From UHGV virus genome UHGV-0138820: a DNA stretch of 20,449 nt; one strand, given 5' to 3'. Both the position numbers and the translations under genes were made by a program. This stretch comes from a virus. The notes under the pieces were generated by a model. It ran no database searches and was not told the origin of the DNA. It worked only from the letters and a program-made list of their open reading frames with translations. Below, piece by piece: positions 3,417 to 9,815 of this stretch; position 1 is the first letter of the stretch; each line of letters begins with the position of its first letter.

Positions 3417-3863
3417 GCTTCACCTCCACAGAGGTCAGACGCTGGATGCAAAAAAACGCAGGTGCATTTCTGCATCTGTGAAGGGAGAAGAGAGTTTGGA
3501 TTGTGTGTGCGCATAAACGTCCCCGTTTAGCGCAGAAGTCACCGGAGTTGTTCAGGCTCCGGTGATACAATTATGGCGAATTGATTATTCATAATCAAAC
3601 AAGATAAGGTCTCAAACTTCATGCAAGCCAAGATTTATTTCTGACAGAATTATACAAAGAAGCTATTGGTCAGAATCTACTCGGACTGTAAAACATACGC
3701 ATAACCTTAAGCTCTCACTTTAAGCATTGTTGAAATAATAGCCGTCAAGTACAACCTTAACCACGACTGGGATATTTTCCTGGCTACCACGAGTTGTACG
3801 GCTATTAAACTGCCGTTAAATTCAGTAAGAGAATTTCATCCGATAAGTCAAGGCATGTAAAAC

Positions 3864-4907
3864 ATGAAAATTAACAAGATATTATCATCTGCAACACTAT
3901 TGTATGGTATGTCAATGGCCATGTCGGTCGGGAGTTGTGCAACACCTGTCCAGACTAATCTTCCTGGTTACACCCCGGGTGCAGATATCATTAGTGTTTC
4001 ACCGACCAGAAACCAGGTCGATCTCATTGGTGATGTTGTTTATTCCCAGATAAAAGGAACTCGTTCTGTCAGACAGCTTCACATGTCAGTTCTTGTCCCG
4101 CGAACAAATGATTTAAAACCAGCCATTATTTATTATCCCGGCGGCGGATTCATGTCTTCTGAACATGACAAATTTATTGAAATGAGAATGGCTCTGGCAG
4201 AAGCTGGTTTTGTTGTGGCCGCTGTAGAATACAGAACAATTCCTGATACATTTCCAGCACCAGTTGAGGATGGAAAAGCTGCAATACGTTACCTGAGAGA
4301 GCATGCCAGCAATTATGGGATTGATCCTCAAAGAATCGGAGTTCTGGGTGACTCTGCCGGTGGATGGCTTGCCCAGATGATGGGAACTACAAATGGTGAC
4401 AAAACCTTTGATAAAGGTGACTTTCTTCAGCAATCCTCAGATGTTCAGGCAGTTGCCACACTTTATGGGATTTCTGACTTGTTGAATATTGGCGAGGGGT
4501 TCCCTGAATCAGTGCAGGAGGTTCATCGCTCTCCTGCCGTAACCGAAGCCTTAATGATCAATGGCCCTGCATTCAGAAATTTTGCGGGAGCCCCCATCAC
4601 AGCGTCAAAAGAAAAAGCGCTAAACGCCAGTCCAATCGGACATATGAAAGGAGTAAAACCCCCATTTCTTATTATGCATGGTAGCAAAGACACTCTGGTT
4701 TCACCTGAGCAAAGCGCCAAACTATTCAGGATGTTGAAGAAGAACGGTGATAACGCTGAGTACGTGCTGGTAGAAGGGGCCGAGCATGGCGATAAGACAT
4801 GGTATCAGCCAATTATTATAAACAGAGTCGTTGAGTGGTTTACTAAAAACCTGGGAGCGCCTATAAAAACAGCTCCCCAACAACAAAACCCAAACGCTAA
4901 CCTGTAA
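3864..4907 (+). CDS. Secreted alpha/beta-hydrolase esterase/lipase, family IV (HSL-like), possible lipoprotein
   Basis: 347-aa ORF with an N-terminal signal peptide (possible lipobox Cys25), oxyanion-hole motif YYPGGGF, nucleophile elbow GDSAGG and a C-terminal EGAEHG carrying the probable catalytic His. Lower GC than the flanking phage genes. Confidence 0.75.
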   Translation: MKINKILSSATLLYGMSMAMSVGSCATPVQTNLPGYTPGADIISVSPTRNQVDLIGDVVYSQIKGTRSVRQLHMSVLVPRTNDLKPAIIYYPGGGFMSSEHDKFIEMRMALAEAGFVVAAVEYRTIPDTFPAPVEDGKAAIRYLREHASNYGIDPQRIGVLGDSAGGWLAQMMGTTNGDKTFDKGDFLQQSSDVQAVATLYGISDLLNIGEGFPESVQEVHRSPAVTEALMINGPAFRNFAGAPITASKEKALNASPIGHMKGVKPPFLIMHGSKDTLVSPEQSAKLFRMLKKNGDNAEYVLVEGAEHGDKTWYQPIIINRVVEWFTKNLGAPIKTAPQQQNPNANL

Positions 4908-4940
4908 AAAGAGGGAGGGCTAAGCCCTCCCCATTCAATT
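4906..4940. terminator. Bidirectional rho-independent terminator between the convergent esterase and adhesin genes
   Basis: GGGAGGGC-taa-GCCCTCCC stem flanked by AAAAA upstream and CATTCAATTTTG downstream, giving U-tracts on both strands. Confidence 0.6.
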
Positions 4941-7900: not shown

Positions 7901-9566
7901 TGGCTGCCTGCTTAATATTCAGAGTAAAGGTTTTTCCCTGAACTTTTGCAGTTACACGTACCGTACCAGCCTGCGAACCAGCAGTCAGAACAGAGCGATA
8001 TACCCCAGCAGAGATTTCCTTTACCGCGCCTAATGACGGAGCAGTTACCGTTTCACGCTGTCGAGCACTATTGCTATCTGCTGTAAATTCCACTGACATT
8101 TCAATGTCATCAGCCAGTCCGGTTAATGCCTTACCGTTACTATCTTTCAGGCTTAATACTATCGGATAAGTGGATTGGCTATCAGCAGAGATCGTCGGCG
8201 ACGAATCTCCATCCAGTGTAAAAGACGAATCAGCCGTCGAGACACCACTATCAGTAACGCTAATATTCATCACGGCATAGTTGGAAACGTTGCCTCTGTT
8301 ATCCTGTACTGTGGCTCCAACATTCCACGAATTTACACCTTCGCTTTTATAAGCCGGTAAAGTGATCTGCCATGATGTGCCATTTCCACTGATCTTGCCG
8401 CCAGCCGCAGTGAATGCACTATCATTCCACTGTACAGACTTGATACCACCACTAGCATTGTTGATTGTCAGTGTTACAGGGATGATTGATTCCCCCTCCC
8501 CCTGAACAGACTCTGGCAAACTGATTTTCAGTGCATGCTTCTTCTTGTACTCCAGAACAATGTTGTTATTTCGTTCAACAAAATCATAACGCCGGTTCTG
8601 GACTTCTCGCATAACTGCAACATTATCGCTGCTAAGCTGTTCAGCCAAGGAAACGCCCGGGCGATAATTAAACTCAACACCAAAGGTTGTATCGTGAGTG
8701 TTGCTCTGTCCTTGCTTATGCTGTGCAGAAAACTTAATCAGAGGAACTGGTGTATAAGAAATTCCCCCAGTAACTGCGTAAGGGTTTTCCTGCAGGTTAT
8801 CGCTTCCAAATAACCCGACATTTTTACCATAATATTTTTCAAACTGAATAGATGCCCCTAATTGCGGATAAGCAGGTAGCCATCCTTCAGCAGAAAAATC
8901 CCAGCCATTTGCAGGTCTTTCCAGATAATCATCAATATCACGACTGTTCTTCCAGTCAGATAGACCAAAATAGGTATTTACACCAAGCCTGAAATAATCC
9001 CTCCAGTACTCAACCCCAAAACCTGCACGAGAGTGACTACGACTTAAATCGTAATCATAGAAAACATTCGCACCCAACATTGCGTTATCAGGAGTGAAAT
9101 GACGAATCCCCAAACCAATATTGGTCTGATTTCGGTCATCAGTACGATGTAGTGATGTCTGACTGAATAACACATAATCCTGAGTATCCAGCCATGGATA
9201 TAAAAAGTCGAATGATGAATCCTTCAAGGAAAAAGAATCATCGACATTAAGCTTGATGCGCGCATTGCCATATTGTTGCAACCAGTCGACGACCTCTTTT
9301 GTCGCCTGAGTTGATAAAGTATTTACAGCAAAACTACTTGCATTATTATTCGCCAGGCTCTGACCTGCACTTGCTGCAAATGAGGCCACTTTATTTGCAT
9401 GCTCATCGCTGGCATAAATTTGCGTAACATCTTTATTACCAGATGATGCAAAACTGTTTGCTGGGATCAAAGAAAGAGAAACTGGAGATAATATCTGGGT
9501 AACAATTACCGACCATGTAATCGCGCCAGATGCAGTTTTTTTTAACTTTTTATTCACAGTGGTCAT
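4944..9566 (-). CDS. Inverse autotransporter adhesin (intimin/invasin family, type Ve) with tandem Big domains
   Basis: 1540-aa ORF with an N-terminal signal peptide and a beta-barrel region carrying intimin/invasin-like motifs (GLGIRHF, GFGVEYWRDYFRLGVNTYF), followed by many Ig-like repeats, four of them near-identical 119-aa units. AT-rich upstream region. Confidence 0.8.
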   Translation of the reverse strand: MTTVNKKLKKTASGAITWSVIVTQILSPVSLSLIPANSFASSGNKDVTQIYASDEHANKVASFAASAGQSLANNNASSFAVNTLSTQATKEVVDWLQQYGNARIKLNVDDSFSLKDSSFDFLYPWLDTQDYVLFSQTSLHRTDDRNQTNIGLGIRHFTPDNAMLGANVFYDYDLSRSHSRAGFGVEYWRDYFRLGVNTYFGLSDWKNSRDIDDYLERPANGWDFSAEGWLPAYPQLGASIQFEKYYGKNVGLFGSDNLQENPYAVTGGISYTPVPLIKFSAQHKQGQSNTHDTTFGVEFNYRPGVSLAEQLSSDNVAVMREVQNRRYDFVERNNNIVLEYKKKHALKISLPESVQGEGESIIPVTLTINNASGGIKSVQWNDSAFTAAGGKISGNGTSWQITLPAYKSEGVNSWNVGATVQDNRGNVSNYAVMNISVTDSGVSTADSSFTLDGDSSPTISADSQSTYPIVLSLKDSNGKALTGLADDIEMSVEFTADSNSARQRETVTAPSLGAVKEISAGVYRSVLTAGSQAGTVRVTAKVQGKTFTLNIKQAAITDSDVSTADSSFTLDGDSSPTISADSQSTYPIVLSLKDSNGKALTGLADDIEMSVEFTADSNSARQRETVTAPSLGAVEEISAGVYRSVLTAGSQAGTVRVTAKVQGKTFTLNIKQAAITDSDVSTADSSFTLDGDSSPTISADSQSTYPIVLSLKDSNGKALTGLADDIEMSVEFTADSNSARQRETVTAPSLGAVEEISAGVYRSVLAAGSQAGTVRVTAKVQGKTFTLNIKQAAITDSDVSTADSSFTLDGDSSPTISADSQSTYPIVLSLKDSNGKALTGLADDIEMSVEFTADSNSARQRETVTAPSLGAVEEISAGVYRSVLAAGSQAGTVRVTAKVQGKTFTLSIKQTAATEPDSEVSAVLTAAPAEQVVGYNINLQLAVKDSQGNAITGDNTLSFYALNQAEGVEFGTVTEKDGVYSATVTSKRAGKITIGVKSDSHDFSGVKKEITFIEDRQQVTFSQFEASQNNALADGKQRNMVTVSLADRFGNVVPGYAVTLSLPAGITQVGGEHAVSTDENGNAIFALISSTPGSYVITAHAGSQMSTELTVTFASNMTGASLSLTPESSSLISNIPANGKDAAVLDVQLTNTNASVNGQKIQLITSSEGLSVPTNIVTDSTGHVSVPLTTVKAGEYTVTARVTDGSHSVESGSVKLTFVPDVASAELNMSVSKQEIVADGSENATVNIQLVDANNNAFTGEVDLTITPSTGASLTSSNLQLDAHGQATTQFTASKSGQYTIQAEYVLDGKRITASQNIDAVTDVKGAVLEITSSASSAVVSDTNNLVFTLLLKSKSGEALSGRALNVKTSGPSKYGALVVDKTTVTTDENGQATVSVHGRTVGSYKLTATLNELGSDVSAVKSFSLYADDANGVLTLTKDPGYETNDGSPVGIYARFVDHFGNPLSGTVEFSAGSEDSPDSQRVKMEPATVTLHWTGNAASEFSTYESGYHWIKAKITNSKNTYEKTIRTYVVKLPEKDS
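6836..8262. repeat. Four near-identical 357-bp tandem repeats (in-frame 119-aa Big-domain units) inside the adhesin gene
   Basis: Identical sequence blocks recur with a 357-bp period (for example ttttccctgaacttttgcag at ~6862, 7219, 7576, 7933). Only a few SNPs distinguish copies (cagcagCcag vs cagcagTcag; tatacAccagc vs tatacCccagc). Boundaries are approximate. Confidence 0.9.
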
Positions 9567-9815
9567 AGTTCAATCAACGTTATGAATATAATGAAAAAAA
9601 TAACTGGTATGACAAGAGGCGCGAAATATACAGCTCGTTACAAAAAAATCAACTCAAAAATAAAATAAAATCTCTGCATAAACTTTATGGCTAAATGATT
9701 TCACAACAATGGAAGAAAAATTTTGTTGCTCACGCAATCAATCATTTCGGGAGTTACAACTAGTCCTAGATTATATTCGCTAGGTATACTTTATTTTTAA
9801 GCTAATACTTTAGCT

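Follow-up and report, generated by a model that had tools for sequence, protein, structure and literature searches.

We analysed a window of 20,449 nucleotides from the virus genome UHGV-0138820, which represents one half (early, immunity and lysis genes) of a lambdoid prophage located at icd in Escherichia coli, and we report on the insert of ~6.2 kb found there between the replication gene P and the nin block. By comparing the window with related phages and prophages and with 5426 complete E. coli genomes, we found that, as judged from these alignments, the insert is made of two independently assorting cassettes: an esterase cassette (~3600-4911) and an adhesin cassette (~4905-9825), the latter encoding an inverse autotransporter (IAT) of 1540 amino acids (aa). 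A previous interpretation made from the letters alone (hereafter the sequence-only reading) had taken both genes for a single cargo island. We consider it probable that the two are moron-type cassettes that were acquired separately and stacked at a permissive P/nin junction, and we propose roles for both that would benefit the host bacterium.

Two cassettes appear to assort independently at the P/nin junction

First, each cassette was found alone. The esterase cassette, without the adhesin, is present at 99.3% identity in eight lambdoid phage records (4A7 and seven others), and phage 4A7 is common to the window over 2011-4911 before continuing with a 508-aa recombinase gene, qacE/emrE, ren and P. 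Reciprocally, in the canine strain 144 the adhesin stands alone between P and orf33: its prophage is common to the window over 4905-10963, lacks the esterase and is a different carrier, with lambda-type cII, cIII, sieB and ral and with other Q and lysis genes. Second, the two cassettes join within seven bases, TAAAAAG (4905-4911), which serve at once as esterase stop codon and as T-tract for the terminator of the adhesin; in 4A7, a different hairpin comes next to this T-tract. TAAAAAG is common to the esterase-only and adhesin-only arrangements and provides the T-tract of whichever - strand hairpin adjoins it. Third, when we compared the locus across related genomes, as the sequence-only reading had suggested, the cassettes assorted separately: among the 5426 complete genomes, 673 have the esterase cassette, 545 the adhesin cassette and 449 both contiguously. 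The sequence type 131 (ST131) strains EC958 and JJ1886 are among the carriers. Four arrangements thus occur at one junction (other cargo only, esterase added, adhesin plus esterase, adhesin only), and no truly empty junction was seen among the related phages and prophages compared.

The insert also has two marks of morons. The backbone genes flanking it are differently arranged in related phages, and its base composition deviates from that of the backbone (49-51% GC), with 43.4% GC at 3600-4911 and 43.5% at 4912-9825 compared to 49.4% in the left backbone and 50.7% over P-O, which bears out the lower GC noted earlier. The coding sequences of the esterase, the adhesin, P and ybcN lie exactly where the sequence-only reading had put them (Table 1), and neither ren nor ninA-D was found within the P-to-ybcN interval, also in agreement with it.

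By aligning the window to related phages and prophages, we could delimit the insert. On the nin side, the last shared backbone position is 3558 in the comparison with strain 144 and 3599 in that with phage Turner; at the other end, homology with insert-free phages restarts at 9826, leaving out the final ten bases of P. The sequence-only reading was right to place an insert between P and the nin block, but it set the left edge at 3417 and the size at ~6.4 kb; since the nin-side backbone extends to ~3599, the size is ~6.2 kb. These boundaries coincide with edges of genes or signals: 3599 is the -35 of a putative nin promoter, 4905-4911 the esterase stop codon with the terminator T-tract, and 9826 the end of P.

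That the P/nin junction is a cargo site, as previously stated for DLP12, was confirmed in phages 4A7 and Turner, in which it is occupied by ren, qacE/emrE and the 508-aa recombinase-family gene (ybcK-like). The insertion point, from P to orf33-ybcN, is the same as that of the DLP12, 4A7 and Turner cargo (ren, emrE/qacE and a ybcK-like recombinase), while the gene content is wholly different, the adhesin cassette replacing ren-qacE-recombinase. It is conceivable that a recombinase next to such an exchangeable site contributes to the turnover of cassettes. In addition, every cargo variant stands directly upstream of the putative nin/rus/Q promoter, whose hexamers, mapped from the phage 82 record (Table 1), were also picked by a consensus promoter scan. 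The position of this promoter just downstream may explain why the P/nin junction accepts inserts with terminators.

The adhesin has the predicted architecture of an inverse autotransporter

By searching the adhesin against Pfam, we found that aa 57-334 match IAT_beta (PF11924) with 338 bits for a cut-off of 22.3, placing the barrel N-terminal to the passenger. Over its full length, the segment of barrel and linker (with NNNIVLEYK) can be aligned with the solved barrels of invasin (4E1T, 5e-75) and intimin (4E1S, 4e-64). Only 56 residues precede the barrel, and Pfam found no LysM domain in the protein; read by eye, the N-terminus starts with a basic n-region (KKLKK), to which a hydrophobic stretch is added, and has SFA/SS near aa 40, as in a putative signal peptide. 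The passenger is made of immunoglobulin (Ig)-like domains, with matches to Big_1 (4e-56) and Invasin_D3 (1.2e-69) in multiple stretches and, judged by length, ~11 domains in total. The resemblance of the first domain to intimin D00 spans residues 342-441, and each of the 357-bp repeats that follow encodes one 119-aa Ig-like domain. Identical 1540-aa proteins are present at NCBI (27 member sequences).

Then, we modelled the C-terminal part. A single-sequence AlphaFold2 model of the last 330 aa had a predicted local distance difference test score (pLDDT) of 50.5, with a confident Ig fold only in its first domain (aa 1226-1321), and was superseded by a model of the tip built on a 14-sequence alignment, which reached a pLDDT of 90.5 and has two all-beta domains. 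The best solved folds for this tip are intimin D0-D1, InvD, InvE, FdeC (4E9L) and invasin Ig domains, and Pfam found no lectin or intimin C-terminal family in the adhesin at E-values up to 5. As modelled, the tip is Ig-like and not lectin-like. An exhaustive search of 1.84 billion representative proteins with the last 218 residues gave only 48 matches. Most of them cover the penultimate domain alone, and ~10 go beyond query residue 170 and thus reach the final ~50 aa. When the C-terminal 330 aa were used in a word-indexed homologue search, five near-identical fragments were all that came up.

Together, these sequence features identify the large gene as an intact IAT of the intimin/invasin secretion class (type Ve) that is devoid of the defining features of intimin or invasin themselves. 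The sequence-only label of an intimin/invasin-type adhesin therefore holds for the secretion class and the full barrel, and fails for the lectin tip and LysM, both of which are absent; because of these two absences, binding to Tir or to integrins cannot be transferred to this protein. It is not a giant either, as had been claimed, since 1540 aa is mid-range for the class (YeeJ, 2359 aa; IatC, 2934 aa). Every named NCBIfam adhesin model that it matched scored under its cut-off, with, in bits against cut-off, 390/2400 for IatC, 318/999 for SinH/IatB, 270/508 for YchO/IatA, 312/1125 for Ilp, 306/750 for YrIlm, 284/710 for Inv and 322/1400 for intimin_all. RefSeq names it "inverse autotransporter beta domain-containing protein" or "adhesin", and in PHROGs the family is phrog_7803, annotated as "function unknown".

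The adhesin is distinct from FdeC and from other known surface proteins

The closest characterised relative that we compared is FdeC: the N-terminal 277 aa of the adhesin are 49% identical to the EaeH fragment of strain K-12, a remnant of FdeC. As far as compared, the two share a short N-terminus without LysM, the barrel, a chain of Ig-like domains and an Ig-like tip without lectin, and the adhesin tip has 4E9L, the structure of FdeC, as one of its best fold matches. Unlike fdeC, which lies in the chromosomal matA-ykgA region, the adhesin gene lies in a prophage cassette; its family has one to four near-identical 119-aa repeats, and no sequence match was found between its passenger and 4E9L. 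In a 2019 survey of E. coli IATs (Goh et al., PMC6714894), EC958 and JJ1886 were scored for fdeC, iatA and iatB only. We found that both strains also contain the window-type adhesin gene. Identity with FdeC was thus ruled out by locus, passenger sequence and coexistence, and since EC958 and JJ1886 have both genes, the adhesin is a paralogue of FdeC.

With invasin of Yersinia and intimin of enteropathogenic and enterohaemorrhagic E. coli, the adhesin shares the barrel, the linker and the first Ig domain (D00), and it differs from them by the lack of LysM and of a C-type-lectin-like receptor-binding tip. The families covered by the 2019 survey are intimin, FdeC, YeeJ and IatA-D, its table has no column for the window adhesin, and IatB, IatC and IatD were found to promote biofilm on expression (PMC6714894). 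The window adhesin belongs to the same secretion class as these three and falls outside their NCBIfam models. Outer-membrane or surface proteins are known as lysogenic-conversion cargo of lambdoid prophages, such as lambda Lom, Bor/Iss and the Eib proteins of the ECOR-9 prophages (PMC8065619). Lom and Bor are small, whereas the adhesin gene measures 4.6 kb, and Eib is a trimeric protein of a different type V subclass. The sequence is frequent in public genomes under generic annotations, which limits its novelty; the adhesin is an uncharacterised representative of an established class.

Repeat number varies between adhesin alleles

To describe variation among alleles, we used a sample of 60 evenly spaced complete-genome matches. 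Judged by the match spans, the 119-aa repeat is present four times in one genome, three times in ~34 (many of them ST131), twice in ~12 and once in ~9. Protein clusters are likewise dominated by lengths of 1302, 1421 and 1540 aa, many of them on tens to hundreds of contigs, and the intact four-repeat allele of the window is the longest form seen. AVS0193, the sole complete genome found with four repeats, has its gene annotated in two pieces around the stretch that corresponds to window positions ~8612-8625; the window copy is 99.9% identical to it and intact. A pseudogene disrupted in most relatives, which the sequence-only reading had named as a way to be proven wrong, is not what we observed, as ~54 of the 60 genomes gave a single uninterrupted match.

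Outside E. coli, the nearest relatives among species representatives are in Citrobacter portucalensis and two other Citrobacter (65-66% identity over the N-terminal 460 aa), with a partial copy in Escherichia albertii at 80% and homologues in Providencia and Xenorhabdus at 38-39%. The Citrobacter homologue, of 1186 aa, aligns through the tip at 48% identity. In C. portucalensis the gene adjoins a P4-like primase-helicase gene and inositol catabolism genes, and it may be the cargo of a satellite-type island.

The esterase resembles carbohydrate esterases and is probably a lipoprotein

The sequence-only reading had described the second cargo gene as a signal-peptide-bearing, secreted esterase of family IV. 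Both motifs on which it relied are present, YYPGGGF at aa 90 and GDSAGG at aa 162, and from motif order a putative catalytic triad can be read as Ser164 (GDSAGG), Asp276 (HGSKD) and His308 (EHGD). The classification itself was right in part. In favour of it are GDSAGG and the match to Abhydrolase_3. On the other hand, the oxyanion box is PGGG and not HGGG, BD-FAE outscores Abhydrolase_3 in Pfam (154 versus 81 bits), and the NCBIfam equivalog and hormone-sensitive-lipase subfamily models are all far under their cut-offs. The closest solved structures are Lip_vut4 (6NKF, 1.6e-37) and then acetyl-xylan and carbohydrate esterases, and PHROGs gives phrog_3341 "esterase" (1.9e-129). The protein is thus best placed, by similarity, as BD-FAE/carbohydrate-esterase-like, "family IV" being only loosely right. 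As for its location, a regular expression modelled on the PROSITE lipoprotein rule matched a lipobox (GMSMAMSVGSC, with VGSC) in which Cys25 is followed by Ala, with Lys2 and Lys5 in the n-region. Because of this lipobox, a membrane-anchored lipoprotein appears more likely than a freely secreted enzyme.

No functional study of this esterase was found in the literature. A comparable case is that of the NanS-p proteins, sialate O-acetylesterases carried by Stx-phage prophages, which are also non-essential prophage cargo (PMC10462455). Unlike these, the window esterase has only alpha/beta-hydrolase matches in Pfam, with BD-FAE as the best, and is located in the early-right operon. NanS-p proteins belong to a different fold family, and their genes lie near stx in the phage genome. 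Membership of the NanS-p family was ruled out on this difference of fold, so that the likeness is one of analogy.

Regulatory signals and a possible independent expression of the two genes

The adhesin and esterase genes converge on the hairpin at 4912-4932, which lies 5 nt after the esterase stop codon. The tail of this hairpin is CUUUUUAC on the - strand, a clean U-tract, and CAUUCAAUUU on the + strand, a poor one. The convergence described by the sequence-only reading is therefore real, whereas its bidirectional terminator is not supported in both directions: since the clean U-tract is on the - strand only, the terminator would mainly serve the adhesin. The hairpin accompanies the adhesin cassette in strain 144, and no terminator with a clear U-tract was found downstream of the esterase gene.

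The adhesin is co-oriented with the early-right operon and has its own upstream region and terminator, an arrangement that would allow it to be transcribed in the lysogen as well as after induction. In a lysogen, transcription would start from its own AT-rich upstream region, and after induction it could be reached by read-through or antiterminated transcription from pR. The esterase cassette would be transcribed against the early-right operon and thus from a promoter of its own, because of its opposite orientation.

Table 1. Features of the window discussed in the text, with positions on the window and supporting evidence
Feature	Position	Strand	Evidence or remark
Esterase cassette	3600-4911	+	43.4% GC; 264-bp upstream region with 37.9% GC
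Esterase coding sequence, 347 aa	3864-4907	+	Pfam BD-FAE 5.7e-45, Abhydrolase_3 1.1e-22
Adhesin cassette (terminator, coding sequence, AT-rich upstream region)	4905-9825	-	43.5% GC
GC-rich hairpin with 9-bp stem, putative adhesin terminator	4912-4932	-	terminator scan; fold -20 kcal/mol, z = -3.6
Inverse autotransporter coding sequence, 1540 aa, intact, no internal stop	4944-9566	-
Tip, two all-beta Ig-like domains (aa 1323-1540)	4947-5600	-	AlphaFold2 model
Another ~4 non-identical Ig-like domains, Big_1/Invasin_D3 (aa 913-1322)	5601-6830	-	Pfam; number estimated from lengths
Four tandem 357-bp repeats (aa 437-912)	6838-8257	-	99% identity; Tandem Repeats Finder score 2763
First Ig-like domain, intimin-D00-like (aa 342-436)	8259-8543	-	match to 6TQD (intimin D00-D0), 1.5e-9
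Beta-barrel and linker (aa 57-341)	8544-9398	-	Pfam IAT_beta 6.4e-101
Putative signal peptide and short periplasmic stretch before the barrel	aa 1-56	-
AT-rich region upstream of the adhesin, 249 bp, 29.7% GC	9567-9815	-	two promoter-like hexamer pairs, 9652-9625 and 9615-9588 (putative)
ybcN (NinB-like), first large backbone gene on the nin side	2961-3416	-	Pfam NinB; named ybcN in relatives
orf33, small backbone open reading frame upstream of ybcN, outside the insert	3413-3514	-	annotated in AVS0193, EC958 and the phage 82 record; also in insert-free phages
Inverted repeat, 8-bp perfect, "possible regulator-binding"	3538-3566	-	phage 82 record X92588.1
Putative promoter of orf33-ybcN	-35 at 3593-3598, -10 at 3570-3575	-	phage 82 record X92588.1 mapped onto the window
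Replication gene P, backbone on the P side	9816-10517	-	Pfam Phage_lambda_P 6e-61
Integrase gene	18381-19523
3' part of icd	19637-20443

On the - strand, the genes follow the order ydaT-like, O, P, insert, orf33, ybcN, ninE, ybcO, rusA and Q. The gene at the cII position, upstream of O (11515-12060, - strand), has a YdaT toxin domain (Pfam 7.4e-30).

The cargo is carried by complete-looking and by decayed prophages

In EC958, the element that carries the cargo extends from an icd fragment (4053651-4053818) to icd (4101581), which is ~47.8 kb, and has a full lambda-like set of head, tail and lysis genes together with sitABCD, iss and a TonB-family gene. There, sitABCD stands beside the tail-fibre genes, iss is bor-like, and ~10 kb of the ~47.8 kb are cargo. 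This size falls within the lambda packaging range, and the idea that a gene of 4.6 kb would exceed the packaging limit was rejected on that ground. The flanks of the window are 99% identical to the EC958 prophage, with the exception of the immunity region 12055-13989, which differs. This segment, with the repressor, a cro-like gene and neighbouring open reading frames, is unmatched in the ST131 prophages of EC958 and AVS0193, and by its sequence is a mosaic exchange of the immunity module.

By contrast with this complete-looking prophage, strains CUVET20-PYO2 and SCU-176 hold the adhesin and esterase pair in a decayed DLP12-like remnant. In it, intE and O are frameshifted, copies of IS3, IS110 and IS30 are present, the structural genes have been lost and gpJ directly adjoins a lysis gene, while both cargo genes are intact. 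Their retention suggests that the cargo, and not the phage, has been under selection.

Weighing the two-cassette interpretation against alternatives

Several observations weigh against the interpretation of two separately acquired moron-type cassettes that serve the host. First, the adhesin is in none of 50,697 phage records: by tblastn with the barrel we found no genuine phage record with such a domain, which agrees with the sequence-only remark that an adhesin of this kind is unusual as a phage moron. Two matches of that search were not phage genomes, one being a 501-kb Salmonella chromosome contig and the other a 2.1-kb unannotated fragment. Second, the cassettes occur together very often (449 of 545), which may be due in part to the sampling of ST131 clones and could also hide a functional link. 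Third, ~6 of the 60 sampled adhesin copies (~10%) are disrupted or partial, namely by IS66, by IS3 twice, by the split gene of AVS0193 and as two partial matches. Fourth, of the AT-rich putative promoters proposed by the sequence-only reading, the AT-richness stands (29.7% GC upstream of the adhesin), but the promoter-like hexamers are not enriched over shuffled sequence (10 found versus 12.3 expected). Finally, we found no paper describing the adhesin, the retrieved ones dealing with SinH/IatB or FdeC, and the EC958 genome paper does not mention the gene.

The alternative that survives best, which we consider possible if less probable than the two-cassette interpretation, is that the adhesin cassette sits in resident, perhaps non-inducible prophages and spreads by recombination between backbones or by vertical descent. 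It would account for the absence of the adhesin from phage records, where the esterase cassette is found eight times, and for its persistence in a clearly defective remnant. It also fits the Citrobacter homologues located by a P4-like primase island and the partial copy of E. albertii, located beside ordinary metabolic genes. Nevertheless, at least three lambdoid backbones with distinct immunity, Q and lysis modules have the adhesin at this one junction, the EC958 prophage looks complete and at ~47.8 kb should be packageable, and PHROGs includes the family as phrog_7803.

We regard as improbable that the two genes form one co-functional island acquired together, in which the esterase might for instance expose a ligand for the adhesin. 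Adjacency, convergence on one hairpin, matching GC (43.4% and 43.5%) and co-occurrence in 449 of the 545 adhesin-positive genomes are what such an island would show. But each cassette occurs without the other in otherwise complete lambdoid genomes, and these separate occurrences (the eight phage records on one side, strain 144 on the other) contradict the single cargo island initially described. Moreover, ~224 genomes have the esterase without an adjacent adhesin and ~96 show the reverse, and the hairpin 3' of the esterase is a different one in phage 4A7.

We give a similarly small chance to the adhesin gene being silent baggage that decays without a present function. Chromosomal IATs of E. 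coli are weakly expressed in the laboratory (PMC6714894), and such a decay would be consistent with the ~10% of disrupted copies and with the split gene in the sole complete four-repeat genome, AVS0193. Against this, the 4.6-kb frame has stayed open in alleles from different prophages, with 2-9% DNA divergence between them, the adhesin is intact where the surrounding prophage decays, and the Citrobacter homologue is conserved up to the tip at 48% identity.

It is very unlikely that the cargo serves the phage itself, by receptor masking, superinfection exclusion or aggregation of cells during induction. The orientation of the adhesin would permit read-through transcription after induction, and lambdoid early regions often hold exclusion genes, ren being at this very position in 4A7 and Turner; yet the cargo is kept in a remnant that is unable to produce phage, and we know of no exclusion function in the IAT class. 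Lastly, an assembly artefact joining unrelated loci, which the sequence-only reading had mentioned as fatal to its view, is already refuted by the same arrangement in 449 complete genomes, the full 6.6 kb being found at 99.8% identity in hundreds of complete, mostly long-read assemblies.

A proposed role for the cassettes in the lysogen

The comparisons above established the anatomy of the locus, its family memberships, the independence of the cassettes, their distribution and their intactness. From these we infer the expression of the adhesin, its surface display, a ligand, a substrate for the esterase and an effect on fitness. In the mechanism that we propose, the adhesin would be exported by Sec, as expected for the type Ve route, its N-terminal 12-stranded barrel would insert into the outer membrane, and the C-terminal passenger of ~11 Ig-like domains would be exported as a hairpin to form a rod of ~40 nm with two Ig-like domains at its tip. 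This length is scaled from invasin, whose five domains form a rod of ~18 nm. Unequal recombination among the four 119-aa repeats, leaving one to four copies, could vary the length of the stalk. The gene is probably silenced in laboratory conditions in an H-NS-type manner, like its relative FdeC, which is reportedly regulated by H-NS and temperature (Easton et al. 2014). In the lysogen, the esterase would most likely act as an envelope-anchored deacetylase or esterase.

The benefit would likely go to the host, through adhesion or biofilm formation, so that the adhesin could bring about a lysogenic conversion of adhesion. In its most extended form, this proposal would make the adhesin an eighth E. 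coli IAT family, that is a paralogue of FdeC moved by phages and expressed by the host, which would help ST131 and other extraintestinal lineages to colonise the gut or the urinary tract, with the repeat number tuning the stalk to the thickness of capsule or O-antigen. We consider this complete picture speculative and rather unlikely to be right in all its parts.

The locus shows one lambdoid junction taking interchangeable cargo cassettes. If expressed and displayed, the adhesin would be a surface antigen and a possible colonisation factor in ~10% of complete E. coli genomes, including the ST131 reference strains, and, if phages do transmit it, it would be the first demonstrated case of an inverse autotransporter carried as phage cargo.

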